Origin: Melghirimyces algeriensis
GTDB taxonomy: Bacteria; Bacillota; Bacilli; Thermoactinomycetales; DSM-45169
Length of the DNA: 64,000 nucleotides
Direction of reading: 5' to 3'
Assembly (NCBI RefSeq): GCF_900182565.1
Contig: NZ_FXTI01000001.1
Span: 478,316-542,315, forward strand
Made by a program: the position numbers and the translations under genes. How positions within the stretch are numbered: position 1 is the stretch's first letter; each line of letters starts with the position of its first letter. The notes below the pieces were generated by a model, which saw only the letters and a list, made by a program, of their open reading frames with translations, had not been told where the DNA came from and did not search any database. Of the stretch, positions 4,013-61,465 are shown in pieces.

Positions 4013-5437
4013 ATGGCAGAAAATTACGATCTTGTCGTTTTGGGTGCCGGACCAGGGGGCTATGTCGCAGCCATCCGGGCAGCCCAGCTCGGTTTCAAAA
4101 CAGCAGTAGTGGAAAAGAGGAAAGTGGGAGGGGTTTGTCTGCATAAAGGATGTATCCCTTCCAAATCGCTGTTGAGAAGTGCGGAATTGTATCATGAGAT
4201 GAAACAGAGTAAGAACTATGGTATTCAAGCCGAGAATGTACATTTGGATTTTTCCTTGGTGCAATCCAGAAAGAATCAGGTGAAAGAGCAACTCTTTAAA
4301 GGAGTCAAGCACCTGTTGAAGAAAAACGGGGTGACCGTTGTGGAAGGGACTGGGCGGATTCTGGGTTCATCAATCTTTTCTCCACAGCCGGGCACGATTT
4401 CTGTGGAAAAAGAGGATGGCAGTGAGCCGGAGATGTTAGTTCCTCAATATGTGCTGATCGCTACCGGATCACGTCCTCGAACGTTACCTGGTCTCCATGT
4501 AGACGGAAAGTCCATTCTGTATTCCGATCATGCTCTGGAGATGGAAAAATTACCGGAGTCGATTGTGATCGTGGGGGGAGGTGTAATCGGAATAGAATGG
4601 GCATCGATGCTCAATGACTTTGGTGTCGATGTGACCGTTGTGGAATATATGGATCGAATATTGCCGTTGGAAGACTCCGATGTCAGTAAAGAGATGACCC
4701 GTTTGATGAAAAAACGAAAAGTGAAAATCCTTACCTCTGCGAAAGTATTGTCTGAATCAGTTCAGGTGGAGAATGGACAGGTTACGTTGCAGGTGGAAAA
4801 AGGCGGCACAACCCAATCACTAAAGGCTGAAAAGATGCTGGTTTCGGTTGGAAGACAACCCAACACGGAAGATATCGGCCTTCACAATACATCTATCAAG
4901 GAAGAAAAAGGATTTATCCAAGTGAATGAATATGGTCAAACGGCAGAATCCCACATTTATGCGATCGGGGATGTGACCGGGGGATATCAGCTGGCCCATG
5001 TTGCTTCTCACGAGGGGATTCTGGCAGTGGAACATATGGCCGGAAATCAGCCATATCCCCTGAATCCGACGATGATTCCGCGTTGTACATACAGTCGCCC
5101 CGAAATTGGAAGTATCGGTCTATCCGAAGAAGAAGCAAAAGAGCAGGGATATGAGTTGAAAGTTGGTAAATTTCCATTCCGGGGAGTGGGAAAATCCCTT
5201 GTATTCGGAGAGTCTGATGGCTTTATTAAATTGATTGCAGACAAGGAAACAGAAGATATTTTGGGGGTTCATATCATTGGTCCGCATGCGACAGATCTGA
5301 TATCCGAGGCAGGTTTGGCTAAAGTGATGGATGCTACCCCGTGGGAGATCAGTCAAGCGATTCATCCCCATCCGACCCTGTCGGAAGTTTACGGGGAAGT
5401 GGCGATGGGAATAGAAGGGGTTCCGATTCATTCGTAA
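4013..5437 (+). CDS. lpdV: Dihydrolipoyl dehydrogenase (E3) of the branched-chain 2-oxoacid dehydrogenase complex
   Basis: FAD-binding GAGPGGY motif, redox-active CLHKGCIPSK and a pyridine-nucleotide disulfide oxidoreductase fold. Start is ATG 4013 after AAGGAG. Confidence 0.85.
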   Translation: MAENYDLVVLGAGPGGYVAAIRAAQLGFKTAVVEKRKVGGVCLHKGCIPSKSLLRSAELYHEMKQSKNYGIQAENVHLDFSLVQSRKNQVKEQLFKGVKHLLKKNGVTVVEGTGRILGSSIFSPQPGTISVEKEDGSEPEMLVPQYVLIATGSRPRTLPGLHVDGKSILYSDHALEMEKLPESIVIVGGGVIGIEWASMLNDFGVDVTVVEYMDRILPLEDSDVSKEMTRLMKKRKVKILTSAKVLSESVQVENGQVTLQVEKGGTTQSLKAEKMLVSVGRQPNTEDIGLHNTSIKEEKGFIQVNEYGQTAESHIYAIGDVTGGYQLAHVASHEGILAVEHMAGNQPYPLNPTMIPRCTYSRPEIGSIGLSEEEAKEQGYELKVGKFPFRGVGKSLVFGESDGFIKLIADKETEDILGVHIIGPHATDLISEAGLAKVMDATPWEISQAIHPHPTLSEVYGEVAMGIEGVPIHS

Positions 5438-5484
5438 TCTTATGAAGAAGAAACCAATGGAAAAGGGATCGGAGGGATTGGTCA

Positions 5485-6477
5485 ATGGGTAACGAGCGAC
5501 ACAAAACACTGGGCCTGTCGGATGAGCAGGTTCTGGATATGTACCGTTACATGCTGTTGGCGCGCAAGATTGATGAGCGGATGTGGCTGTTAAATCGAGC
5601 GGGAAAAATCCCGTTTGTCATTTCTTGCCAAGGGCAGGAGGCGATCCAGGTGGGGGCTGCCTTTGCTCTGGATCGGGAAAAGGATTGGCTTTGCCCGTAT
5701 TACCGGGATCTAGGAATGGTGCTGGTCTTCGGGCAATCTGCACGGGATCAGATGCTGTCCGCTTTTGCCAAAGCGGAAGATCCGAACAGCGGAGGCCGGC
5801 AGATGCCAGGGCATTATGGAGATCGCCGGTTTCGGATTGTATCAGGTTCCAGCCCGGTAACGACCCAATTGTTGCATGCTGTGGGTGTAGCTTTAGCTGC
5901 CAAAATGGATCAGAAAGATATTGTTTCTTTTACTTCTTTCGGTGAGGGTTCCAGTAACCAGGGAGATTTTCATGAAGGTCTCAATTTTGCGGGTGTACAC
6001 AACCTCCCGGTGATTTTTATGTGCGAAAACAACAAGTACGCCATTTCCGTTCCGGTTGAAAAACAACTAGCTGGAGGAAGCGTGGCAGCACGGGCTCAAG
6101 GCTATGGCATGCCAGGTGTTCAGGTGGATGGAAATGATCCGCTGAAAGTGTTTGAAGCCGTGAAAACCGCTGCGGATCGCGCCCGTTGTGGTCAAGGTCC
6201 CACATTGATTGAAGCGTCTTCCTATCGGTTGGTGCCCCACTCCAGTGATGATGATGACCGTTCCTACAGAAGGACTGAAGAGGTGGAAGAAGCGAGAAAG
6301 AATGATCCTTTGGTGCAGTTTCAAAAGTATCTTCAGGAGACGGGTTTGTTGAACAAAGAAAAAGAGAAGCTTCTGGATCAGGAGATCAACAAAGAGGTGG
6401 ATGATGCGACGGATTATGCTGAACAGGCTCCTGATCCTGACCCGGCTCAAACCTATACTCACGTCTACGCGGAATAG
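5485..6477 (+). CDS. bkdAA: Branched-chain 2-oxoacid dehydrogenase E1 alpha subunit
   Basis: TPP-dependent E1 alpha homology, with the start preceded by GGAGGG. Confidence 0.85.
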   Translation: MGNERHKTLGLSDEQVLDMYRYMLLARKIDERMWLLNRAGKIPFVISCQGQEAIQVGAAFALDREKDWLCPYYRDLGMVLVFGQSARDQMLSAFAKAEDPNSGGRQMPGHYGDRRFRIVSGSSPVTTQLLHAVGVALAAKMDQKDIVSFTSFGEGSSNQGDFHEGLNFAGVHNLPVIFMCENNKYAISVPVEKQLAGGSVAARAQGYGMPGVQVDGNDPLKVFEAVKTAADRARCGQGPTLIEASSYRLVPHSSDDDDRSYRRTEEVEEARKNDPLVQFQKYLQETGLLNKEKEKLLDQEINKEVDDATDYAEQAPDPDPAQTYTHVYAE

Positions 6478-25983: not shown

Positions 25984-26814
25984 ATGGAATCCAAGATTCA
26001 ACAAGCAGAACAGGCGGCTGAAACAATTCGTGAACGGATATCCACAAAGCCTGATATCGGTTTGGTATTGGGGTCCGGGTTGGGGATTCTGGCTGAAGAG
26101 ATTGAAAATAAAGAGGCGATCACTTACAGTGATATCCCTCATTTTCCCGTATCCACTGTGGAAGGACATGCCGGAAGATTGGTGATAGGGAAATTGGAAT
26201 CTCAGTCAGTTGTTGCCATGCAGGGGCGCTTTCATTTTTATGAAGGGTATAGTATGCAGGAGGTAACGTTCCCGATTCGGGTAATGAAATCCTTGGGAGT
26301 CAAGACATTGGTGGTGACCAATGCGGCAGGGGGGATCAATAAAACGTTTGATGCAGGAGATTTTATGTTGATCAATGATCATATCAATATGATGTTTACC
26401 AATCCCTTGATCGGTCCTAACCATCCGGAATGGGGTGTGCGCTTTCCGGATATGTCGGAGGCATATGATCCTGGATACCGTCAGTTGGCAAAACGGGTGG
26501 CGGCTTATCATCATATTCCGCTCAAGGAAGGTGTTTACCTAGGTTCGACAGGACCTTCCTATGAAACCCCGGCGGAAATCCGCATGTTTCGCACATTGGG
26601 AGCGGACGCCGTTGGGATGTCCACTGTGCCTGAAGTGATCGTGGCTCGCCATGCAGGAATGCGTACTCTCGGAATCTCCTGTATTACTAATCTCGCTGCG
26701 GGAATTCTTCCACAACCGTTAAGCCATGATGAAGTGATGGAAACTGCGGAGCGGGTAAAGCCCCGTTTTATTCAGCTGGTAAAGGGAATTGTCAAAGACA
26801 TTTTGTCCGTTTAA
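25984..26814 (+). CDS. punA: Purine nucleoside phosphorylase (PNP family 2, PunA-like)
   Basis: PNP/MTAP family motifs [17 protein letters not shown] and GMSTVPEV. Confidence 0.8.
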   Translation: MESKIQQAEQAAETIRERISTKPDIGLVLGSGLGILAEEIENKEAITYSDIPHFPVSTVEGHAGRLVIGKLESQSVVAMQGRFHFYEGYSMQEVTFPIRVMKSLGVKTLVVTNAAGGINKTFDAGDFMLINDHINMMFTNPLIGPNHPEWGVRFPDMSEAYDPGYRQLAKRVAAYHHIPLKEGVYLGSTGPSYETPAEIRMFRTLGADAVGMSTVPEVIVARHAGMRTLGISCITNLAAGILPQPLSHDEVMETAERVKPRFIQLVKGIVKDILSV

Positions 26815-26860
26815 GGTATTATCAGAACAGCGTGAAAACAAAAAAAGGGGCGACCTGGAA

Positions 26861-27688
26861 ATGACAGAAATCTATCAAAAGATGGAAGAAGCACGGAATT
26901 ATATACAAAAAAAGACCGCACATCATCCTGAGGTTGGAATGATACTCGGTTCTGGGTTGGGAGAGCTGGCTGATGATATTGAGGATGCGGTTACGATTCC
27001 TTATTCGGATATTCCCCACTTTCCTGTCTCCACTGTGGAAGGGCATGCCGGGCAGCTGGTGATTGGCCGTCTTTCCGGAAAAACAGTTGTTGCGATGCAG
27101 GGGCGTTTTCATTTTTATGAAGGGTATACCCAACAAGAGGTTGTATTCCCTGTTTATGTGATGAAAGCGCTTGGAATCCAATGGCTGATTGCCACCAATG
27201 CTTGTGGTGGCATGAATGAACGCTTTCAAGCAGGGGATCTGATGTTGATTGAAGATCATATCAATTTTACTGGAAGCAACCCCCTTATCGGACCGAATGA
27301 TTCCCGATTGGGACCACGGTTTCCGGATATGTCCACAGCATATGATCGTAAATTGATGGACTTGGCACATCATGTGGCGGGTGAGCAGGGAATTCGCCTG
27401 CAACAAGGGGTATATGCAGGAGTCAGTGGACCGGCATATATGACTCCTTCAGAGTTGATCATGCTTAGAAACCTGGGTGGAGATGCGGTTGGAATGTCTA
27501 CAGTACCTGAGGTGATCGTTGCTAGTTACATGGGTTTGAAAGTCCTGGGAATTTCCTGCATTACGGATATGGCGATCGGGGAAGACTTGGAACCGCTCAC
27601 CCATGAACAGGTTGTAGAAGTGGCCAATCAAACGAAACCTCGCTTTATCCGCCTGGTGAAGGGAGTTCTTGCCGAGGTGAAGGTGTAA
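26861..27688 (+). CDS. Purine nucleoside phosphorylase, tandem paralog
   Basis: Same motifs and roughly 60 percent identity to the upstream punA. Start is moved to ATG 26861. Confidence 0.75.
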
Positions 27689-27689
27689 A

Positions 27690-29015
27690 ATGAACACAGT
27701 GGAAATCATTCGGAAAAAACGGAATGGAGAAGTGCTGTCTTCAGAAGAGATACAATATCTGATTCAGGGATATGCCAAGGGAGAGATTCCGGATTACCAA
27801 ATGTCCGCTTTGGCAATGGCGATCTATTTCCGCGGAATGGACTCCCGTGAAACAGCAGATCTGACCATGGAGATGGTTCAGTCGGGTGAACGTGTGGATC
27901 TCTCCCGAATAAACGGTGTGAAAGTGGATAAGCACAGCACCGGAGGAGTGGGGGATACAACCACGTTGGTTTTGGCTCCCTTGGTGGCTGCAGCAGGGGT
28001 TCCGGTTGCCAAAATGTCCGGTCGGGGATTGGGGCATACCGGTGGTACGATTGATAAGTTGGAATCATTTCAGGGGTTTTCTACCTCACTAAGCCCTGAA
28101 TCCTTCGTTCAACAAGTGAATGGGATTGGCTTGGCTGTCATGGGGCAAACCGCAGATTTGACACCTGCTGACAAACAGTTGTATGCATTGCGGGACGTGA
28201 CAGCAACAGTGGATTCCATCCCGTTAATTTCCAGTTCGATTATGAGCAAAAAAATTGCGTCCGGAGCCGATGCCATTGTTTTGGATGTCAAGACTGGAAA
28301 TGGAGCGTTTATGAAAGAAGAAGCGCAAGCGATTCAACTTGCTCAGGCGATGGTTGCCATTGGCAATAGGGTGGGTCGACAAACAGTTGCTGTCATCAGT
28401 GATATGGAACAACCGTTGGGAATGGCGGTTGGCAATGCATTGGAGATAAAGGAAGCGATTGAAACCCTGCAAGGAAAGGGTCCACGAGATCTGACAGAAC
28501 TCTGTCTGGTGTTGGGAGCGCAAATGGTAGTGTTGGCCGGAAAAGCGGAAAGCATGGATCAGGCCAAAGAAACATTGCAAAGAGCCATCTCTGATGGGTC
28601 TGCGTTAGACCGGTTCCGGCAATTTGTAAAGGCGCAAGGTGGTGATCCCCGTGCAGTGGATCATCCTGAGTTGCTTCCCGTTGCAAAATATGTACAAGAG
28701 GTGAAAGCACCGGATGATGGTGTTATTACCGGATTGATTGCGGAAGAGATCGGTCTTTGTGCAATGGAATTGGGAGCCGGGAGAAAGACAAAGGATGCAG
28801 TGATTGACCATGGCGTGGGCGTCGTTTTGCGTAAAAAAATCGGTGATACCGTCCGTCAGGGAGAAGCATTGGCCAATCTTTATGTAAACGACCTTGAAAA
28901 GGCGAAACAGGTTGAGAAACGCTTTCTCCAAGCAGTTAGAATTTCTAAGGAATCTGTGGACGCACCCCGTTTAATCCGGGCTTTGGTAACGGAAAACGGT
29001 GTGGAAAGGATATAG
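27690..29015 (+). CDS. pdp: Pyrimidine-nucleoside (thymidine) phosphorylase
   Basis: Glycosyl transferase family 3 motifs ([10 protein letters not shown]). Confidence 0.85.
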
Positions 29016-29023
29016 GAGAGCTT

Positions 29024-29058
29024 AAAAAACTGGGCATCGTGGGCCCAGTTTTTTTATT
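29024..29058 (+). terminator. Intrinsic terminator (AAAAAACTGGGC...GCCCAGTTTTTTT)
   Basis: 6-bp GC stem flanked by an A-run and a T-run, downstream of pdp. Confidence 0.6.
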
Positions 29059-29211
29059 TCTCAATATAGCGATGAGATCGTGGTTTTCAGGTTCTACTTC
29101 TCTATCGCCGATCGGCAAGGGGTTAGACGAATCACAGTAGGTTGGAGTAAAATAATCTCGTTCACCATATGCTTGACAGCAATCAGTGTGATCAATGGGG
29201 AGTGTGAAAGC

Positions 29212-30069
29212 ATGAACATAGAATACTGGTATCATTTTATGGAAACCGCACGACAAAAAAGTATATTGAAAGCCAGTGCAAAACTGCAGATGACTCACCC
29301 CGCCTTGAGTAAACAAATACGCGCTTTGGAGCAGTATTATGGGGTTACATTGTTCCGACGCTCTTCAACCGGCGTACAACTGACAGAGGCGGGCAATTGT
29401 TTGTTTCAGAGGTTGGAGGTTTTAATAGCAGAGCATGAAATGCTTCGCACTGATTTGCAAAAATATGCAGCTACAGACCCCAAGCCGATTACTTTAGGAA
29501 CCCTTCCAAGTATTGCGATGTTTCATTTACCAGCGAAGGTATTGCGCCTGCAGGCGAATGGGTTCCGGATGAAAGTGGTGGTGCGTCATACGACAAAAGA
29601 ATTGGTGGAGTTACTGCAAAACGATATACTTCACGCTGTATTGATAGAGAAAACACCGCTTCATAAATCGGTATGGACGACAGAGTTGTTTCGGGAGGTA
29701 TATTACGCGATTTTGCCCACTGATCACCCTTTGTCCTGCCAAAGTGAATTGAGCAAAAAGGAAATGGTTCAGGAACCCTTAGTGGTACACCCGAATGCTT
29801 GCGTGATTCGAAAAACGATCGTTCGACAGTTTGAAAGGTCGGGACTGGTACCCCAGATCGGAAAAGAGATCGATTTTGGAGAGTCTATTCTTGCTTACGT
29901 AGCAGCCGGAGCTGGTATCACCATCATGCCACTGTCCTCCACTGCTGAACAGGTAACAGATCCACGGCTTAAGGTGATACCGCTCATCGATTTCGATGCA
30001 GAACGTGTCATCATTCTTGCTACCCGTTCCTCCTTGGAAGGAAAGCATTTGCTTCGATATCTTAAATAA
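29212..30069 (+). CDS. LysR family transcriptional regulator
   Basis: N-terminal HTH (LKASAKLQMTHPALSKQIRALE) plus a LysR substrate-binding domain. Start is moved to ATG 29212 after GGGGAG. Confidence 0.8.
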   Translation: MNIEYWYHFMETARQKSILKASAKLQMTHPALSKQIRALEQYYGVTLFRRSSTGVQLTEAGNCLFQRLEVLIAEHEMLRTDLQKYAATDPKPITLGTLPSIAMFHLPAKVLRLQANGFRMKVVVRHTTKELVELLQNDILHAVLIEKTPLHKSVWTTELFREVYYAILPTDHPLSCQSELSKKEMVQEPLVVHPNACVIRKTIVRQFERSGLVPQIGKEIDFGESILAYVAAGAGITIMPLSSTAEQVTDPRLKVIPLIDFDAERVIILATRSSLEGKHLLRYLK

Positions 30070-30706
30070 CGTACTCATCCATTCCGAACAGACGATATGA
30101 GACATATGGATAATTGCCGTACCGAATGGCAAGCTCGCGTTCAAATAACGTCATACGCTCGATGGTTCGATTGTTTTCTAAATTTCCACTATCCCATGCT
30201 CTAAAGGGCAAGGGTTTCAGTAAATTTAATACGGTCCGGCGAGCCTCCCCGTCGTCTCCTGTTACGAATATATCGCTTTTTTCCCCCTGATGTAGTGGTT
30301 GCTCCAACACTTGGAAGAATGTGTTTTTAAACGCGCCGACAACAGCTGTATGAGGAAGCATTTTTTGCAACTCTTCGGCGGCTGACTGCCCCCAATCCAG
30401 CGTGAAATCACTGAAATCTTCTGTGAATGGATTGGCGATATCGACAAGGATTCTTCCGGCTAACCTCTTTTCATTTTTTTGCGCCCAAGGAATCAGATCC
30501 CGAAACCAAAAAGAGTGAAAAATGATATCGGCATTTAATGCTTCCCGGTATGAAGACGTCATTACCCCGGTCCATCCTCGCTTGCGACATATCCCTTCGG
30601 CTTTTTCCGGTGTACGGGAAGCCCAGACTAATCCGCTATAGTGTGGTGCAAGCACATTTACCAATCCTTGTCCCATCCGTCCGGTTCCTAAGACACTGAT
30701 ATTCAT
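30062..30706 (-). CDS. NAD(P)-binding oxidoreductase (F420-dependent NADP reductase-like / P5CR-like Rossmann protein)
   Basis: N-terminal GTGRMG dinucleotide-binding motif. Its 3' end is convergent with the LysR gene and overlaps it by 8 nt. Confidence 0.6.
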   Translation of the reverse strand: MNISVLGTGRMGQGLVNVLAPHYSGLVWASRTPEKAEGICRKRGWTGVMTSSYREALNADIIFHSFWFRDLIPWAQKNEKRLAGRILVDIANPFTEDFSDFTLDWGQSAAEELQKMLPHTAVVGAFKNTFFQVLEQPLHQGEKSDIFVTGDDGEARRTVLNLLKPLPFRAWDSGNLENNRTIERMTLFERELAIRYGNYPYVSYRLFGMDEYVI

Positions 30707-30881
30707 CACAAAATCCCTCCTTTGATCTCATCATAGCAACGCAACATCTCGTATGGAAGAACGACATGGTTAGAAGGTTGTAATCTAAAGTTTTACCCTG
30801 ACATTGATTATGTATTGCATTCACTATGAATATATGGCTTTGCACCGAGACATTCGCTTAGGGTCCGGTTTTTATCATTTG

Positions 30882-30910
30882 TTGACAGAATTATTTATCT
30901 GTTTTAAAAT
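30882..30910 (+). promoter_or_regulatory. Consensus SigA promoter TTGACA-17-TAAAAT
   Basis: Perfect -35 element, 17-nt spacer and a TAAAAT -10 element. The next annotated gene, an SPFH protein, is about 520 nt downstream, and the region between them contains tRNA-like sequence. Confidence 0.5.
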
Positions 30911-31032
30911 AATAAAGTTTGTTTCCTACGCAGGAATTTCTGAATAATTCCGCAGTGCTTGGTCCTAGTTGGATTTAAGTATACTGGAAACAAGTGACAC
31001 CATGGCAAGCTGGTGTCTTATAAACCGTGATG

Positions 31033-31120
31033 TCGGAGGTTCGACTCCTCCATCGCCAGCCGGCGATTAGCTCAGTTGGTAGAGCACACGTGATACTGAG
31101 GTTCGATTCCTCAATTGTCT
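31033..31120 (+). pseudogene. tRNA-like relics: a 3' fragment (T-arm + acceptor 3' strand, 31033-31058) directly followed by a truncated tRNA-like sequence (acceptor-D-arm-T-arm without an anticodon arm, 31061-31120)
   Basis: The first piece is GTCGGAGGTTCGACTCCTCCATCGCCA. The second is CGGCGAT-TA-GCTCAGTTGGTAGAGC followed by 10 nt then TGAGGTTCGATTCCTCA. The second piece has no anticodon stem-loop and its 3' acceptor strand does not pair with its 5' end. Confidence 0.3.
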
Positions 31121-31438
31121 AGTGGACAATGCTTGGCAGCTCCTTTGTTTTTTGGGCTTTTTTAGTGGAATCCTCAGTAAATCTGCGGTGGAAAGTATTC
31201 CATCGATTTACACTGAAGGTTCGGCCTCGAAGGTTGGTGGATACCGGGGTGGTTGATTACTTGATCGTCTGAACTGACAGAAGTTTGAATCAATAGAGGA
31301 GAGGGTTTTTTTCTTTTTTGTTTCATCTTCGGGTACAGAAGGCTTGGAAAGACCGTTCCTTAAGCCAAGCTCCGCCGGTTCTTTGGGAGGGTTCCACAAA
31401 AAGCTTCATTGATTTTACGTTAGGAATGAGGAAATGAT

Positions 31439-32563
31439 ATGATACATATTCGAAATGACCAGCGCGGCTTGCTGTTTAAACGGGGAAACTATGTGAAGCA
31501 TTTGAAACCGGGAAAACACTTTTCTCCTTTGATCAAAAACAGTCCTTTCAGCAGTTATCAGGTCATTGTGATGGATGTTCACCAGCCGTTTTTCCACCCC
31601 GATTATCCACTCCATATGTTTCTACATGATGAGGAGTTGCTCAAAGAACTGACCATCCTTGATGTAAAAGACCATGAGCTCGCTCTTCATTTTGAGGATG
31701 GGAAGTTTACCGAGGTCTATACATCAGGTACATACGCTTTTTGGAATATATACAAGAAGCATACATTTACTGTTGTGGATAAAAGAAAACCGGCGGTTTC
31801 AGAGGAAATTGACTGTTCCATCTTTTCCGATCCTGAATTGAGGAATTTTTTGAAAGAGGTTCATGTAGGAACACATGAACGGGGAATTCTTTATTACAAC
31901 CATCAATTCCAGGAAGAATTGAAGCCAGGGAATTACTATTTCTGGAAGGGTCCTGTAACCGTCGATGTTCAGATGGTTGATATGCGACAACAACAATTGG
32001 ATATGACGGGACAGGAAATGATGACCGCCGATAAAGTTACCCTTCGGCTCAACTTTGTCTGTCAGTATCAGGTGGTTAACCCACGAAGGGTATTGGAAGT
32101 GCGATCATTTGACCAACAGGTGTATATTTATCTGCAATTGGTATTGAGAGAGCACATTGGAGCCTTTCGACTGGATGATCTGTTAAAACAGAAACAGAAG
32201 GTCGGTTCCCTTGTGCTTCAACGATTGAAAGAGAAGGAAGATGACTTTGGCGTTCGCTTTATGGATGCAGGGGTGAAAGACATTATACTGCCCGGTGATG
32301 TCAAGGAAATCCTGAATACGGTTCTCATTGCGGAAAAGAAGGCTCAAGCCAACATTATCACCCGACGGGAGGAGACCGCGTCAACGCGAAGTCTTTTAAA
32401 TACGGCCAAACTGATGGATCAAAACCAGACCTTATATCGGCTGAAAGAGTTGGAATTTATGGAGCGGATCTGTGAAAAGATCGGCACGATTTCCATTTCC
32501 GGGGGCGGAAATCTCTTGGAACAGTTAAACTCTCTTCTTCTTCGGGAACATCAAAAAAAGTAA
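31439..32563 (+). CDS. SPFH/band-7 domain protein
   Basis: The C-terminal half has canonical SPFH motifs (RFMDAGVKDIILPGDVKEILNTVLIAEKKAQANIITRREETAS). No N-terminal TM helix. Confidence 0.65.
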   Translation: MIHIRNDQRGLLFKRGNYVKHLKPGKHFSPLIKNSPFSSYQVIVMDVHQPFFHPDYPLHMFLHDEELLKELTILDVKDHELALHFEDGKFTEVYTSGTYAFWNIYKKHTFTVVDKRKPAVSEEIDCSIFSDPELRNFLKEVHVGTHERGILYYNHQFQEELKPGNYYFWKGPVTVDVQMVDMRQQQLDMTGQEMMTADKVTLRLNFVCQYQVVNPRRVLEVRSFDQQVYIYLQLVLREHIGAFRLDDLLKQKQKVGSLVLQRLKEKEDDFGVRFMDAGVKDIILPGDVKEILNTVLIAEKKAQANIITRREETASTRSLLNTAKLMDQNQTLYRLKELEFMERICEKIGTISISGGGNLLEQLNSLLLREHQKK

Positions 32564-32830
32564 ACCGTAAAGGGAAAGCTTTCAGGTGATTACCAAGTGG
32601 CGTCAAAGTTCCAGCTTCCGCTTTTGTTTGCCTGTCTTCATTTTAAGTTTGGATGTGTATTGGAATCCTTGACCATATACATCCTGTTTTTATGGCTTTC
32701 CTATAGTAAACTCCAGGGGATCATATAAAACAGACTGGATTTCTTCTGTTTTGAAGCCGTACTTGATAATTGGAATAATTTCCTTCCCCCTGTTCACAAT
32801 AAGGGTATGATGAATAGGAGGGAAGCCTTG

Positions 32831-34003
32831 ATGCGATGGCGTGTATGTATATGGGCTGTCATGCTTTGTTTGCCTTTTTCTGTGCTGTCTAAGCCGGCTT
32901 GGGCATCAGAAGGTGGTTTGGCTCCTGAAGCCAAGTCGGCGATTCTGATGGATATGGACACGGGAACCGTTCTATATGAAAAAAACAGCAATGAAAAACT
33001 CCCGCCTGCCAGTATTACCAAGATTATGACCATGCTGTTGGTTATGGAGGCCTTGGAACAAGGAAAAATTTCCTATCATGATAAGGTACGAGTAAGTGAA
33101 AGAGCCGCATCGATGGGAGGCTCTCAAGTGTACTTGGAGCCGGGAGAAGTGATGAATTTGCGGGATATGTTGAAAGCCGTTGCAGTGGGAAGCGCCAATG
33201 ATGCTTCGGTTGCTTTGGCAGAACATATTGCCGGAACAGAGGAAGATTTTGTTCAAATGATGAATCGTCGGGCAGAAAAACTTGGAATGAAAAATACCCG
33301 ATTTCAAAACCCCAATGGGCTCCCGGCCGATGACCATTATACGACGGCCGGAGATATAGCCATCATGTCCAGGGAATTATTGAAACACCCTGAAATCACA
33401 AGGTTTACTCGTATTTATGAGGATCATTTAAGAAAGGAAAGTGAAAATCCCTTTTGGTTGGTCAACACCAACCGCCTGGTTAAGTTTTATAAAGGGATGG
33501 ATGGTTTGAAAACGGGGTTTACGGCTAAAGCCAAATATTGTTTATCTGCTACAGCAAAACGAGGAAATCTCCGCGTGATCGCTGTTGTTATGGGAGAACC
33601 GGATGCAAAAGCAAGGAACCGTGAGATCACCAGGATGATAGATTATGCCTTTAATCGGTATACCAATCATGTAATCTATCGACAGGGACAACCGATCAGT
33701 CAGTTGCCTGTGGATAAAGGGAAGAAACCGATCATCACGGTACGTTCTCCTCAACAGTTCAGTGTTTTGGTCCCAAGAGGTGAAAATACGGCGGACTATC
33801 AATCTGAGATTGAATGGAAACGACTGGTTTCTCCGGTGAAGAAGGGGGATGAAATCGGGAAAATCAAGGTGATTAAAGACGGAGAGACAGTGTCGGAAAT
33901 GCGTTTGATTTCCGATGAGGATATTCCCAAAGCGGGGTTATGGTTACTGATTAAGCGGACAACCCGGAATATGTTCTTTCTGCCGGAGGAAAAAGCCGTA
34001 TAA
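32831..34003 (+). CDS. dacF: Sporulation-specific D-alanyl-D-alanine carboxypeptidase (S11)
   Basis: Signal peptide, SITK and SGN motifs, and a position upstream of spoIIAA-spoIIAB-sigF as in B. subtilis. Start is moved to ATG 32831 after AGGAGGGAAG. Confidence 0.8.
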   Translation: MRWRVCIWAVMLCLPFSVLSKPAWASEGGLAPEAKSAILMDMDTGTVLYEKNSNEKLPPASITKIMTMLLVMEALEQGKISYHDKVRVSERAASMGGSQVYLEPGEVMNLRDMLKAVAVGSANDASVALAEHIAGTEEDFVQMMNRRAEKLGMKNTRFQNPNGLPADDHYTTAGDIAIMSRELLKHPEITRFTRIYEDHLRKESENPFWLVNTNRLVKFYKGMDGLKTGFTAKAKYCLSATAKRGNLRVIAVVMGEPDAKARNREITRMIDYAFNRYTNHVIYRQGQPISQLPVDKGKKPIITVRSPQQFSVLVPRGENTADYQSEIEWKRLVSPVKKGDEIGKIKVIKDGETVSEMRLISDEDIPKAGLWLLIKRTTRNMFFLPEEKAV

Positions 34004-34018
34004 TTTGCAGACGATACA

Positions 34019-34062
34019 CTGGAAAGGCCCATGCCGGCTTTTCCAGTTTTCTTCTTCTTTTA
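34019..34062 (+). terminator. Intrinsic terminator after dacF (CTGGAAAGGCC...GGCTTTTCCAG + T-rich)
   Basis: Roughly 10-bp stem followed by TTTTCTTCTTCTTTT. Confidence 0.5.
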
Positions 34063-34141
34063 CCAAAAAGAAGGAAGAGGCTTTCGTGTTGTAGAACTTT
34101 AAAACAAACCGGATTTTTCAGTCCAACAGAGGTGAGTTGAA

Positions 34142-34495
34142 ATGAGTTTACATGTAGATGTTTCCCATTACCATAATGTTCTTTTGGTTCGTCTGTCCGG
34201 TGAATTGGATCATCATACAGCGACAGATGTAAGGGAACGGATTGACCGCGAATTGTCCAAAGGGATCTATGCTCATTTGGTATTAAACCTCTCAGATCTC
34301 ACCTTCATGGACAGTTCCGGTCTGGGAGTGATACTTGGGCGGTACCGTCAGGTGACACAGATGGGTGGGAAGATGGTTCTTTGTTCCGTGCAACCATCTG
34401 TTTACCGTTTGTTTGAGCTGTCAGGCATGCTTAAAATTTTGCCGTTTTGTGAAGATGAGCAAAGAGCGCTTCATGTTTGCGGGGTGGCTTCATGA
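34142..34495 (+). CDS. spoIIAA: Anti-sigma-F factor antagonist (STAS domain)
   Basis: STAS domain with the phosphorylatable Ser motif ([12 protein letters not shown]). Confidence 0.85.
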
Positions 34496-34947
34496 TGAGT
34501 GTACATAATAACTTTATGGAACTGAAATTTTCCAGTCAGTCAGAAAATGAATCCTTTGCGCGGGTTGCTGTGGCTTCTTTTATATCCCAGCTTGATCCGA
34601 CCGTAGATGAATTGACGGATATTAAAACCGTCGTTTCAGAAGCGGTTACCAATGCGGTGATACATGGTTATGAAGAAAGACCGGATGGGATTATCACGAT
34701 TCGGACAGAGATTCGCGGGAGTCAAGTAAGCATTGTTGTGGAAGATGAGGGAATAGGTATTTCCAATGTTGAGGAAGCCCGTCAACCGCTGTACACTTCC
34801 AAACCACAAATGGAACGATCAGGTATGGGGTTTACAATTATGGAAAATTTCATGGATCAAGTGGAGATTCTTTCTTCGGAGGGGAAAGGGACTCAGGTTC
34901 GCTTGGTCAAAGATTTAAAAACACACCGACAGACCATAGGAAACTGA
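34492..34947 (+). CDS. spoIIAB: Anti-sigma-F factor (GHKL-type Ser kinase)
   Basis: Very similar to B. subtilis SpoIIAB ([43 protein letters not shown]). The start overlaps the spoIIAA stop (ATGATGA). Confidence 0.85.
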
Positions 34948-34956
34948 GGGTTGCCC

Positions 34957-35727
34957 ATGGAATCCGATGTGCGCAATTCCAGACACAAACATTTGTCTGA
35001 TAAGGAAGTTAAGGAGCTAATTGAGAAGAGTCAAAAAGGGGACGTCGCTTCCCGCGATCGATTGGTTAATCATAATATTCGCCTGGTTTGGTCGGTTGTA
35101 CAACGTTTTCTGAATCGGGGTTACGAGGCGGAGGATCTTTTTCAGATTGGTTGTATCGGGCTGTTAAAGGCAGTGGACAAATTTGATTTAACCTATGATG
35201 TTAAATTTTCCACTTATGCGGTTCCAATGATTATTGGAGAAATTCAGCGATTTCTCAGGGATGATGGAGTTATGAAAGTGAGTCGTTCCCTGAAAGAACT
35301 GTCCAATCGAATTCGCAAAAGCAAAGATGAACTTACCAAAATGTTGGGTCGGAGTCCCACCGTATACGAGTTGGCGGAAGAGATGGATGTTCCGGTGGAA
35401 GAAATTATCTTTGCGCAAGAAGCGAATCGTGCTCCTACATCCATTCATGAGACGGTATATGAAAATGATGGGGACCCGATTACCTTGATGGATCAGATTG
35501 CGGATCGTTCGGAAGAGAGTTGGTTTGATAAAATTGCTTTAAATGAAGCGATTAACCAATTGAGCGAGCGTGAAAAATTGATTGTCTACCTTCGTTTTTT
35601 TAAAGATCAAACCCAATCAGAGGTTGCTGAGCGTTTGCAGATTTCACAGGTTCAGGTTTCCCGGTTGGAAAAGAAGATAATTCGTCGGATGAGAAGCTCC
35701 ATCGACGAATATGAAAACGACCGTTGA
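34957..35727 (+). CDS. sigF: RNA polymerase sporulation sigma factor F
   Basis: Regions 2-4 are nearly identical to B. subtilis SigF (MRLVWSVVQRFLNRGYE...DLFQIGCIGLLK). ATG 34957 after GAGGG. Confidence 0.9.
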   Translation: MESDVRNSRHKHLSDKEVKELIEKSQKGDVASRDRLVNHNIRLVWSVVQRFLNRGYEAEDLFQIGCIGLLKAVDKFDLTYDVKFSTYAVPMIIGEIQRFLRDDGVMKVSRSLKELSNRIRKSKDELTKMLGRSPTVYELAEEMDVPVEEIIFAQEANRAPTSIHETVYENDGDPITLMDQIADRSEESWFDKIALNEAINQLSEREKLIVYLRFFKDQTQSEVAERLQISQVQVSRLEKKIIRRMRSSIDEYENDR

Positions 35728-37915: not shown

Positions 37916-37952
37916 TATATGTGCTCTGTAGGGAATGTTCCATTGTTTTCCT

Positions 37953-38178
37953 GTGAGTAGAGGTGCGGTCCGCATGAATACCTTCCTGGAGAATCGGCAT
38001 CGAAGAAAGGTTGGGAAAGGGCGTTTCGCCGAAGTAGGAGGGGGTGCCGAAACCCCTCTTGCTGGTCGATTTGCTGAATAAGGAGTCGACTGTCGCGGCT
38101 CTGTCGCGGAGTGCTACATGAGGAGGACTGTTCTGAATGAAAAGCAACAGACGTCTTCGTCCGTTGCTTTTTCTGTTT
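37953..38178 (+). ncRNA. Lysine riboswitch (L-box) with a terminator expression platform
   Basis: Conserved L-box elements are present: GTAGAGGTGCGG, CTGGAGA, GAAAGGGCG, TCGCCGAAGTAGGAGGGG and TGCTGGTCG. They are followed by the hairpin AAAGCAACAGACG-TCTT-CGTCCGTTGCTTTTTCTGTTTTG directly before the lysA RBS. Confidence 0.7.
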
Positions 38179-42139: not shown

Positions 42140-42337
42140 ACAATCCTTCGGGGCTGGGTGAAATTCCCGACCGGCGGTGATGGAGAGTACTCCTCAGTCC
42201 GTGACCCGCGCAAGCGGTGGATCCGGTGAAACTCCGGGGCCGACAGTGAAAGTCTGGATGGGAGAAGGATGAATGTTTCATACTCGTGCGTAGTAATCGG
42301 GAAACCCTCTCTATGAATGAAGGAGGGTTTGGTTCCG
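42140..42337 (+). ncRNA. FMN riboswitch (RFN element) with a terminator hairpin
   Basis: CCTTCGGGGCTGGGTGAAATTCCCGACCGGCGGTGA...CCGTGACCCG...CGGTGGATCCGGTGAAACTCCGGGGCCGACAGTGAAAGTCTGGATGGGAGAAGGATGAA matches the RFN consensus nearly position by position. The terminator GAAACCCTC...GAGGGTTTGGTT follows. Confidence 0.75.
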
Positions 42338-61182: not shown

Positions 61183-61465
61183 AAGCCTTTCATCCCACAC
61201 CACTGTCCAGCGGTGAGGGACGAAAGGCCGTGTTGCCACCCTCATTCACTCCGACCTCACAGCCGGAGTCTCATTGGGTCTATTGAAGACCCTGGGATAA
61301 CGGTTCACCGATTCGACCTACTGTGATTCAGCCGAATGACTCAGGAGTGCTCCGCAGCGGTTGGAACACCGATTCGCAGCTACCATCGGCTCTCTGCAGT
61401 TCCGTTTTTCGCCACTTGGCTCCGTCATTGTCTTTTCCTGATCAGTATTTCAAAAAAGATTGTAA
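61183..61465 (-). ncRNA. T-box riboswitch leader (candidate serine-specific) upstream of the aminotransferase-serA operon
   Basis: On the minus strand there is an AGAGAG AG-box, the T-box sequence AATGAGGGTGGCAACACGG, and a terminator GCCTTTCGTCCCTCACC...GGTGTGGGATGAAAGGC + T6 immediately before the aminotransferase RBS. A TTGACA -35 element lies about 290 nt upstream. Confidence 0.55.

Follow-up and report, generated by a model that had tools for sequence, protein, structure and literature searches.

The stretch of DNA analysed here (the window) comprises 64,000 nt of Melghirimyces algeriensis contig NZ_FXTI01000001.1, and all coordinates below are window positions. It contains a 729-nt gap (30710-31438) that lies between a divergent NADP/F420-type oxidoreductase gene on one side and a gene for a slipin, a protein of the SPFH/Band-7 group, on the other. 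The gap holds only spurious open reading frames (ORFs), all of at most 69 aa, in agreement with a preliminary description that had put this ORF-free region at about 700 bp. A sigma-70-type promoter within it, TTGACA-17-TAAAAT, which that description had noted too, agrees with the consensus at 11 of 12 positions and scores best of all sites across 30500-31600. Transcription is predicted to start near 30917, directly 5' of the first helix (P1) of an RNA of ~490 nt that contains a tRNA-like domain and is contiguous with the slipin 5' untranslated region (UTR). The preliminary description had seen two juxtaposed tRNA-like relics in this region and offered three explanations for them: the scar left at a tRNA gene by an integrative element, a tRNA gene in decay, or a structured RNA that mimics tRNA and lies upstream of the SPFH gene. 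The observation as a whole was confirmed and its interpretation partly supported. The third explanation proved to be the correct one, and the pieces taken for two relics make up one functional domain and a second T-arm hairpin. The landmarks of the locus are:

30882..30910, + strand: SigA-type promoter, with TTGACA at 30882-30887, 17 nt, and TAAAAT at 30905-30910
30917..31406, + strand: whole structured RNA, ~490 nt, contiguous with the slipin 5' UTR, defined by conserved blocks and covarying helices P1 to LR1
31439..32563, + strand: slipin (SPFH/Band-7) gene, 374 aa, the invariant partner of the RNA, with Pfam Band_7 at residues 143-312

YrlA and tRNA were the only two significant Rfam matches on the tRNA-like region. 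With permissive thresholds, YrlA (RF02553) aligned to 31027-31089 over model positions 23-85 of 114 and scored 40.3 bits, against a gathering score of 69. The domain outlined by this alignment consists of the following elements:

31026..31090, + strand: permuted tRNA-like cloverleaf of the YrlA type, supported by the Rfam YrlA alignment, covariation and covariance model R1
31026-31029 with 31087-31090, + strand: closing stem CGUG/CACG of the permuted cloverleaf
31030-31034, + strand: 5-nt variable-loop-like linker of the permuted cloverleaf
31035-31051, + strand: T-arm T1 of the permuted cloverleaf, GGAGG-TTCGACT-CCTCC, followed by ATCGCC
31052-31067, + strand: acceptor-like hairpin AS1, ATCGCC-AGCC-GGCGAT (GGCGAT at 31062-31067), a stem closed by a loop
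31068-31069, + strand: U8-A9-like UA of the permuted cloverleaf
31070-31085, + strand: canonical D-arm, GCTC-AGTTGGTA-GAGC

The order of these elements, T-arm, closed acceptor-like stem-loop, D-arm and closing stem, is that of YrlA's tRNA-like domain. The closing stem occupies the place where an anticodon stem would be and leads on into the remainder of the RNA. T-arm and D-arm both have canonical sequences (GGTTCGANTCC; TAGCTCAGTTGGTAGAGC), and both the U8/A9-like and the variable-loop-like linkers are present. The first T-arm (31035-31051) and the ATCGCC after it are present as the preliminary description had read them, and ATCGCC pairs with GGCGAT as it had noted, forming the closed "acceptor" hairpin of a permuted cloverleaf. 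Because the YrlA-type permuted alignment spans both, the supposed 3' tRNA fragment and the first half of the supposed second tRNA are one domain. In an alignment of 19 sequences, 91.2% of the cells in the cloverleaf helices were paired, compared with 39-45% when the partners were slid, and compensatory changes were present in 15 of the 20 pairs. The AS1 stem, for example, shows compensatory changes among the window, Desmospora activa (locus L004) and a metagenome relative (L006), with the versions ATCGCC/GGCGAT, ATCCCT/AGGGAT and ATCGCG/CGCGAT. Covariance model R1, which was built from the same alignment, scored the window at 78.3 bits (E about 1e-18). Judged by these alignments, 31026-31090 is a circularly permuted tRNA cloverleaf with the architecture of the YrlA tRNA-like domain.

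A scan of a genome collection with the slipin alignment yielded 80 loci from Thermoactinomycetaceae, ~35 Paenibacillus species, Saccharibacillus, Pelosinus, Acetivibrio and Ruminococcus, from Oscillospiraceae, Lachnospiraceae and Erysipelotrichaceae, and from one Treponemataceae and one Bacteroidetes metagenome-assembled genome (MAG). Of the 74 loci whose flank was long enough, about 68 have a T-loop (GTTCGANTCC) at 250-590 nt upstream of slipin, nearly always followed by a closed hairpin. Model R1 gave a same-strand match upstream of slipin in ~70 of the 80 loci, with more than 50 bits in 21. In the window the tRNA-like element lies 350-410 nt upstream of the Band-7/SPFH gene, on the same strand. 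Across the loci the T-arm and the closed hairpin form a near-universal core, and the D-arm and a second T-arm (T2) vary by lineage. In L004 and L006 the slipin neighbourhood consists of Tex upstream and an ABC2 transporter downstream, which differs from punA-pdp-LysR and dacF-spoIIA in the window. Both loci retain ~550 nt of similar non-coding sequence that includes the TTGACA promoter and the YrlA-like module (Rfam YrlA 39.0 bits in L004 and 30.3 bits in L006, both below the gathering score), and in both a TTGACA -35 box occurs with a -10 box whose distance to P1 is unchanged. These comparisons show joint inheritance of the RNA and slipin through differing gene neighbourhoods. The preliminary description had proposed to compare related loci for an intact tRNA or an integrated element; a conserved slipin-linked RNA was found there instead.

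The remainder of the RNA was resolved into a 5' domain, a variable hairpin and a 3' domain:

30918..30994, + strand: 5' three-way-junction domain, supported by RNAalifold and a duplex permutation test
30918-30926 with 30986-30994, + strand: helix P1 of the 5' three-way junction
30930-30953, + strand: hairpin P2 of the 5' three-way junction
30954-30958 with 30979-30985, + strand: conserved bulged helix C-R-G-U-G-C / G-U-[AU]-R-C-Y-G, with the AU bulge at 30981-30982, running on into P3
30959-30978, + strand: P3 of the 5' three-way junction
30996..31017, + strand: variable hairpin GACACCA-N8-TGGTGTC, seen in folds, between the 5' domain and the tRNA-like domain
31154..31175, + strand: LR1 5' strand (GGGCUUUUUUAGUGGAAUCCUC), which holds a T-tract and pairs with 31387-31406 over 20 bp in the minimum-free-energy (MFE) fold
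31231..31247, + strand: LR2 5' strand (~31231-31237) and the near-universal motif GGAUACCGG (31239-31247), from the duplex test and motif count
31365..31406, + strand: LR2 3' strand (~31365-31370), CUCCGCC (31370-31376) and LR1 3' strand (31387-31406), from alignment A5, duplex tests and folds

For the 5' domain, RNAalifold on 16 sequences gave compensatory changes in 22 of 32 pairs. The R:Y pair 30954-30985 of the bulged helix is A-U in 23, G-C in 24 and G-U in 2 of 49 loci, and a mismatch in none. Column-wise pair counts from MAFFT alignments of P1, LR1 and LR2 were discarded because indels shift the register, and an nhmmer search with a 14-nt block of the LR1 5' strand proved too short, with 1 match; it was replaced by a comparison of duplex energies between cognate and non-cognate strands. 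Cognate strands paired more stably in all three helices, with mean energies of -11.5 vs -6.8 kcal/mol for P1, -21.8 vs -17.0 kcal/mol for LR1 and -5.8 vs -2.7 kcal/mol for LR2, and for each helix 0 of 5000 permutations was as good. Covariation is exemplified by GAGUCCC/GGGACUC in L050 and AGAGCAUCCC/GGGAUGCUCU in L039 for LR1, and by GCAGGGC/GCCCUGC in L017 for LR2. The conserved blocks of the 3' domain are GGAAUCCUC, GGAUACCGG and CUCCGC..GGGAGGAUUCC, and GGATACCG-like motifs occur 130-230 nt 5' of the start codon in about 65 of the 80 loci. The variable hairpin has a different sequence at the same position in L004 and L086, and in the window it scored as terminator-like on the opposite strand. 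The unconstrained MFE of 30917-31410 was -165.6 kcal/mol (z = -3.1 relative to shuffles), and this fold recovered P1, P2, T1, AS1, the D-arm, T2 and LR1. Two further candidate pairings were rejected. Pairing of GGAUACCG with the 5' CRGUGC motif showed no covariation, the window combining CAGUGC with GGAUACCGG, and pairing of CUCCG with CGGA has a strand order incompatible with LR2.

The T-rich tracts at 31141-31166 had been proposed to terminate the transcript. The U-run at 31158-31162 belongs to the LR1 5' strand, where it pairs with A31398-31402, and a scan from the promoter to the slipin gene found no terminator-like site on the + strand; for these two reasons we take the RNA to span ~30917-31406. 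Termination at 31141-31166 is unsupported, because conserved structure runs on to 31406. A second T-rich tract (31303-31324) was rejected as a terminator as well, as it lies inside a local hairpin in a variable region and is not conserved. The structured RNA stops 24 nt 5' of the slipin ribosome-binding site (RBS; GAGGA, 31428-31432), which is followed by the ATG at 31439. The sole other promoter-like match on the + strand overlaps the slipin start codon, leaving no plausible second promoter between the RNA and slipin. Read most simply, this arrangement would have slipin co-transcribed with the RNA.

Directly downstream of the permuted domain lies a second T-arm unit:

31097..31130, + strand: second T-arm T2, TGAGG-TTCGATT-CCTCA (31097-31113), and hairpin AS2 (31114-31119 with 31125-31130)

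A perfect D-arm (31070-31085) and this second T-arm (31097-31113) had been read together as a tRNA-like sequence in standard order, and both arms are present. The Rfam tRNA model (RF00005) matched 31061-31121 with 40.9 bits (gathering score 29), a score that reflects the arms alone. Its alignment places 0 nt against the 11 anticodon-arm positions, so that CAC/GUG is all that remains of an anticodon stem-loop, as anticipated by the remark that only 10 nt occupy the place of the anticodon arm. ARAGORN reported zero tRNA and zero tmRNA over the whole 64-kb window, and the Rfam scan likewise gave no tmRNA match. The search for an ordinary intact tRNA with ARAGORN and Rfam, suggested in the preliminary description as a way to overturn its fold, found none, and its statement that the transcript contains no intact tRNA stands. 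A matching 3' acceptor strand, which it had declared missing, does exist, since ATTGTCT (31114-31120) pairs at 6 of 7 positions with CGGCGAT (31061-31067), though the pairing is unconserved. Among the 11 loci with T2, this standard-order acceptor forms 6 of 7 pairs in the window, 5 of 7 in Desmospora (L004) and 1-4 of 7 in eight others. The private hairpin AS2 (ATTGTC with GACAAT) is kept in 10 of the 11 and covaries, with ATTGTC/GACAAT in the window, ATCGTC/GACGAT in L004 and ATGGTA/TACCAT in L016. By this comparison the standard-order "tRNA" at 31061-31121 is not conserved. The region resembles a canonical tRNA in its T-arm, D-arm, U8/A9-like and variable-loop-like linkers and its RF00005 score. 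It differs from canonical tRNAs and from circularly permuted tRNA genes in having no anticodon arm, no free acceptor ends and no CCA, and in an acceptor stem closed by a loop. A canonical tRNA was ruled out by the missing anticodon arm, the lack of conservation of an open acceptor stem and the negative ARAGORN result.

The T2 unit is a direct repeat of GUGAU..-T-arm-AUYGYC and gave a weak second match to model R1 (31096-31138); it is absent from L006 and many other loci. The direct repeat is ~30 nt long (31027-31057, GTGATGTCGGAGGTTCGACTCCTCCATCGCC, vs 31090-31119, GTGATACTGAGGTTCGATTCCTCAATTGTC), and each copy comprises the anticodon-stem 3' strand, variable loop, T-arm and acceptor-stem 3' strand, a composition consistent with a duplicated tRNA 3' half. 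A GC-rich metagenome contig (L146) carries two abutting complete tRNA-like cloverleaves (5408-5553 and 5610-5835) ~360 nt upstream of a slipin that is 33% identical to the window slipin. ARAGORN called them Tyr-gta and Ile-aat, Rfam scored them at 50.1 and 42.8 bits, and an LR1-like helix (GGAAUUCGAGGGG / CCCUUCGGAUUUC) was recognised by eye. L146 is probably a form that resembles authentic tRNA, and it suggests that the permuted domain descends from a tRNA dimer.

Scans outside the slipin loci gave little further. Two scans of viral_contigs with the 5'-domain motif and the T-loop returned 35 matches, none with slipin, RtcB, RlaP or WYL, and hence no phage-borne copy; most of the matches fell within or next to ordinary tRNA genes or tRNA arrays of phages, and their count was about the chance expectation. 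One context-blind metagenome scan for a T-loop / gap / D-arm pattern did not recover the Bacillota slipin RNA, and 75 of its 90 matches were closely spaced ordinary tRNA genes; L146 was among the loci it turned up. In Paenibacillus xanthanilyticus (L044, 1-1545), ~16 extra R1 matches 0.6-2.1 kb upstream of the usual pre-slipin match are probably ordinary tRNA genes.

RtcB is an RNA ligase and RlaP a nucleotidyltransferase, and operons that combine them with WYL-domain regulators are RNA-repair systems. In Clostridia and Erysipelotrichia, Pfam assignments give the order two WYL/WCX regulators, RNA, slipin, RtcB and sometimes RlaP, and some Paenibacillus likewise place the RNA-slipin unit in RtcB/RlaP/WYL operons. 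By tblastn, RtcB, RlaP or WYL lies within 2.5 kb of the unit in about 45 of the 80 loci and in none of the window, L004 and L006. No RtcB, RlaP, WYL or Ro60 gene was found by tblastn in the 64-kb window, which has no RtcB neighbourhood of the kind seen in these relatives. An SPFH gene is also embedded in the rtc locus of Pseudomonas aeruginosa (2026 study, PMC13086221).

Promoters differ along the same line. The best -10 box commonly lies ~40-60 nt 5' of the CRGUGC motif in 49 loci. The loci that have no WYL gene (the window, L004, L006, L017, L045 and L067) carry a consensus or near-consensus -35 box, and WYL-linked loci carry a promoter without a recognisable -35 box (GTGAAA-17-TAAAAT) that is preceded by a conserved AGTTCGCA(G/A)C. 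This motif was present in 14 of the 49 loci, all of which also have two WYL/WCX genes, and it often forms one arm of an inverted repeat with a T-run behind it:

L054, L057-L060, L064, L066, L072, L076, L078, L079, L087: AGTTCGCA(G/A)C upstream of the RNA

This motif may serve WYL as its operator or may terminate the regulator genes. The two promoter types suggest a shift from regulated to constitutive expression between WYL-linked and WYL-free loci, and the consensus -35 box together with the lack of WYL and RtcB neighbours suggests a constitutive stand-alone RNA-slipin pair in this genome.

The genes around the gap (26789-30709 and 32807-35727) are, in order, punA-like, pdp, LysR, the divergent NADP/F420 oxidoreductase, then the RNA and slipin, followed by dacF, spoIIAA, spoIIAB and sigF. 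This order points to a spore former close to Thermoactinomycetaceae. With the nucleoside phosphorylase genes on one side and the dacF-spoIIA operon on the other, the RNA-slipin unit has the look of an insertion. Three Logan contigs (L001-L003) encode an identical slipin and are >99.8% identical to the window, and were unusable for comparison. They differ from window positions 30001-31500 by one mismatch and, in two of the three alignments, also by a 1-nt gap. Gene calls give the oxidoreductase 166 aa in both L001 and L002 and 214 aa in L003, possibly a frameshift variant or an assembly error. Elsewhere in the window, Rfam matches at or above the gathering score were a lysine riboswitch (37950-38124, + strand, 104.8 bits), an FMN riboswitch (42140-42273, + strand, 110.7 bits) and a T-box leader (61213-61437, - strand, 95.5 bits).

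The closest named homologue of the slipin is that of Desmospora activa (74% identity), followed by those of other Thermoactinomycetaceae, Brevibacillus, Paenibacillus and Clostridia. No hydrophobic membrane segment is visible in its sequence. PADLOC gave no match to it, and NCBIfam gave only sub-threshold HflK/HflC matches. An AlphaFold2 model (pLDDT 77.6) consists of N-terminal beta domains, the SPFH domain and a long helix, and the beta-strand motif at the start of the SPFH domain recurs within the N-terminal 140 residues (IRNDQRGLLFKRGNYVKHLKPGKHF vs VGTHERGILYYNHQFQEELKPGNYYFW). In Foldseek the model aligned over ~430 columns to major vault protein, following its layout of repeat, shoulder and cap helix, and over ~240 columns to stomatin and HflK/C; it also resembles prohibitin cages. 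These matches have TM-scores of about 0.35 and sequence identities of 11-13%. The model is compatible with a soluble oligomeric scaffold.

An RNA of this kind has been predicted before. According to Wang et al. (2018, 10.1101/312249), Burroughs and Aravind (Nucleic Acids Res 2016;44:8525) reported that RtcB in some bacteria adjoins a Band-7 protein and a predicted tRNA-like non-coding RNA (ncRNA), "b7a-tRNA", and that YrlA occasionally adjoins a Band-7 protein, an association given there as experimentally unvalidated. [quoted passage not shown] On the strength of its linkage to Band-7, the RNA fits a Band-7-associated tRNA-like RNA of this known but unvalidated kind. As far as the summary describes that RNA, the two correspond because the unit sits in RtcB/RlaP/WYL RNA-repair operons in relatives. 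Literature searches on slipin or SPFH with a tRNA-like RNA or RNA motif returned no description of such an RNA besides that of Wang et al. 2018. They returned no experimental test of a Band-7-associated tRNA-like RNA, for which Rfam holds no family. What lies outside the tRNA-like part, a large conserved architecture, may be new to the literature.

We consider it probable that the gap holds a conserved structured RNA gene of ~490 nt that runs into the slipin mRNA and works by a Y-RNA-like mechanism. A Y RNA joins a protein-binding module to a tRNA-like effector module (PMC4201824). YrlA carries tRNA modifications introduced by TruB and DusA, and in Mycobacterium smegmatis RNase P cuts YrlA and CCA is added to it (PMC4201824). 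Like YrlA, the RNA in the window has a closing stem, variable loop, T-arm, closed acceptor-like stem-loop, UA and D-arm in this order. Both are modular, combining a tRNA mimic with a presumed protein-binding module, and both lie in or beside RtcB operons in relatives. By this analogy the tRNA-like domain probably works as that of YrlA does, and the RNA likely serves a soluble slipin assembly as a Y-RNA-like scaffold or as a tRNA decoy. A soluble ring- or cage-forming slipin oligomer would be bound by the slipin-specific 5' and 3' modules, as Ro60 is by Y RNA, and the T-loop/D-loop elbow, shaped like that of tRNA, would be displayed to tRNA-recognising proteins. Candidate partners of the elbow are RtcB, RlaP, tRNA-modifying enzymes and tRNA-cleaving toxins. 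The RNA might in this way tether repair enzymes or decoy toxins during RNA-damage responses, and in the present genome it would act as part of a constitutively expressed stand-alone RNA-slipin pair.

Several points weigh against this proposal. Transcription, RNA ends and processing are predicted from sequence, and binding of the RNA by slipin is putative, drawn from analogy. RtcB, RlaP and WYL are absent from the 64-kb window and from the two closest relatives, for which reason an RNA-repair role in this organism is extrapolated. Many loci lack the D-arm and second T-arm or have them in degenerate form, so that the full tRNA shape is not universally required. An RNA that ends 24 nt 5' of the RBS without a terminator fits a cis-acting leader equally well. 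The match to b7a-tRNA rests on the second-hand summary in 10.1101/312249, and the vault-like fold match has low TM-scores (about 0.35).

A bolder extension of the proposal is possible but doubtful. Because the domain layout of the slipin resembles that of major vault protein, the ~490-nt RNA and soluble slipin might form a ribonucleoprotein ring or cage, a prokaryotic counterpart of Ro-Y RNA and vault particles, whose tRNA decoy would serve to survey or repair damaged tRNA and which would here be uncoupled from RtcB/WYL control. The vault particle likewise combines an SPFH-type protein, major vault protein with its SPFH-like shoulder domain, with a dedicated structured RNA, the vault RNA. The likeness of the slipin to the vault and to SPFH cages (stomatin, HflK/C, flotillin) is structural only, with low TM-scores, which makes a cage or the packaging of RNA hypothetical here, and vault RNAs are not tRNA-like in the manner of the RNA in the window.

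The alternative that survives best, although we think it unlikely, is a purely cis-acting leader, in which the ~490-nt 5' UTR senses some cue, for instance a protein that binds tRNA, an enzyme that processes or modifies tRNA, or cleavage by a toxin, and in turn governs how stable the slipin (and RtcB) mRNA is or how it is translated. The position of the RNA is always directly upstream of slipin and on the slipin strand, neither a terminator-like site nor a plausible second promoter separates the two, and the structure stops just 24 nt 5' of the RBS. Moreover, LR1 and the conserved CUCCGC..GGGAG hairpin both require the GAG of GGGAGG, a competition that could make a switch. However, the RBS and start codon lie outside all conserved or covarying helices, no terminator/antiterminator pair is present, and in size and modularity the RNA resembles the trans-acting Y RNAs, which are operon-encoded as well (PMC4201824; 10.1101/312249). 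The same core also occurs where it is a protein-bound ncRNA. The context-blind metagenome scan found the T-arm / closed acceptor-like hairpin / D-arm core just upstream of Ro60 genes in L138, L152 and L193, which are classical YrlA/Y RNA loci sharing the core pattern of the window element. In L152 (1525-1836) and L193 (3181-3495), two YrlA-type copies ~260 nt apart lie directly upstream of a Ro60 (TROVE + vWA_Ro60) gene, and in L193 an RtcB gene adjoins them. Cis-regulatory and scaffold roles are compatible and may coexist.

It is far less probable that the RNA is a genuine Ro60-partner YrlA whose rsr gene lies elsewhere in the genome and whose slipin neighbour is incidental. YrlA is one of the two significant Rfam matches and spans the whole tRNA-like domain, but its 40.3 bits fall short of the gathering score of 69. 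In the published cases YrlA and rsr (Ro60/TROVE) share a strand and are no more than 4 kb apart, and the Ro60-binding motif of YrlA, GNCGAAN0-1G, is located close to the 5' end (Chen et al., RNA 2014, PMC4201824). This motif is absent from 30917-31406 and present in only 4 of 49 related loci; no TROVE gene occurs among the nine genes of 26789-35727 or within 4 kb, and tblastn with two Ro60 proteins found no Ro60 in the window or in 82 slipin loci. The linkage to slipin, in contrast, persists across differing neighbourhoods. A YrlA in the strict sense was ruled out by the sub-threshold score, the missing Ro60-binding motif and the lack of rsr within 4 kb. The RNA in the window further differs from YrlA in its slipin partner, its much larger size, its second T-arm hairpin, its three-way junction and its 3' domain holding GGAUACCGG.

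A functionless decayed tRNA gene or tandem pair, or the attachment scar of a tRNA-targeting integrative element, retains a negligible chance and is effectively refuted by the covariation: the direct repeat of T-arm and acceptor 3' strand, the residual standard-order acceptor pairing (6 of 7 in the window, 5 of 7 in L004) and the two abutting complete cloverleaves of L146, which make descent from tRNA genes plausible, speak for it, but compensatory changes preserve every helix beside slipin across many genera, position, strand and promoter are conserved, the same arrangement, including the repeat, recurs in unrelated neighbourhoods and always beside slipin, no tRNA gene lies in the 64 kb, and no integrase was seen among the nine genes of 26789-35727.

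The window offers a clean example, with a textbook promoter, of an RNA predicted bioinformatically in 2016, and the analysis adds to that prediction a defined ~490-nt architecture with strong covariation support. Comparison of the 80 loci places the tRNA mimic as one module of a large, strongly covarying RNA that is widespread in Bacillota (Paenibacillus, Thermoactinomycetaceae and gut Clostridia). The defined helices and motifs could support an Rfam-style family, and annotation could then cease to call such loci pseudo-tRNAs or empty intergenic gaps. Both the function of soluble SPFH proteins and the reason why RNA-repair operons carry tRNA mimics are thereby made testable.

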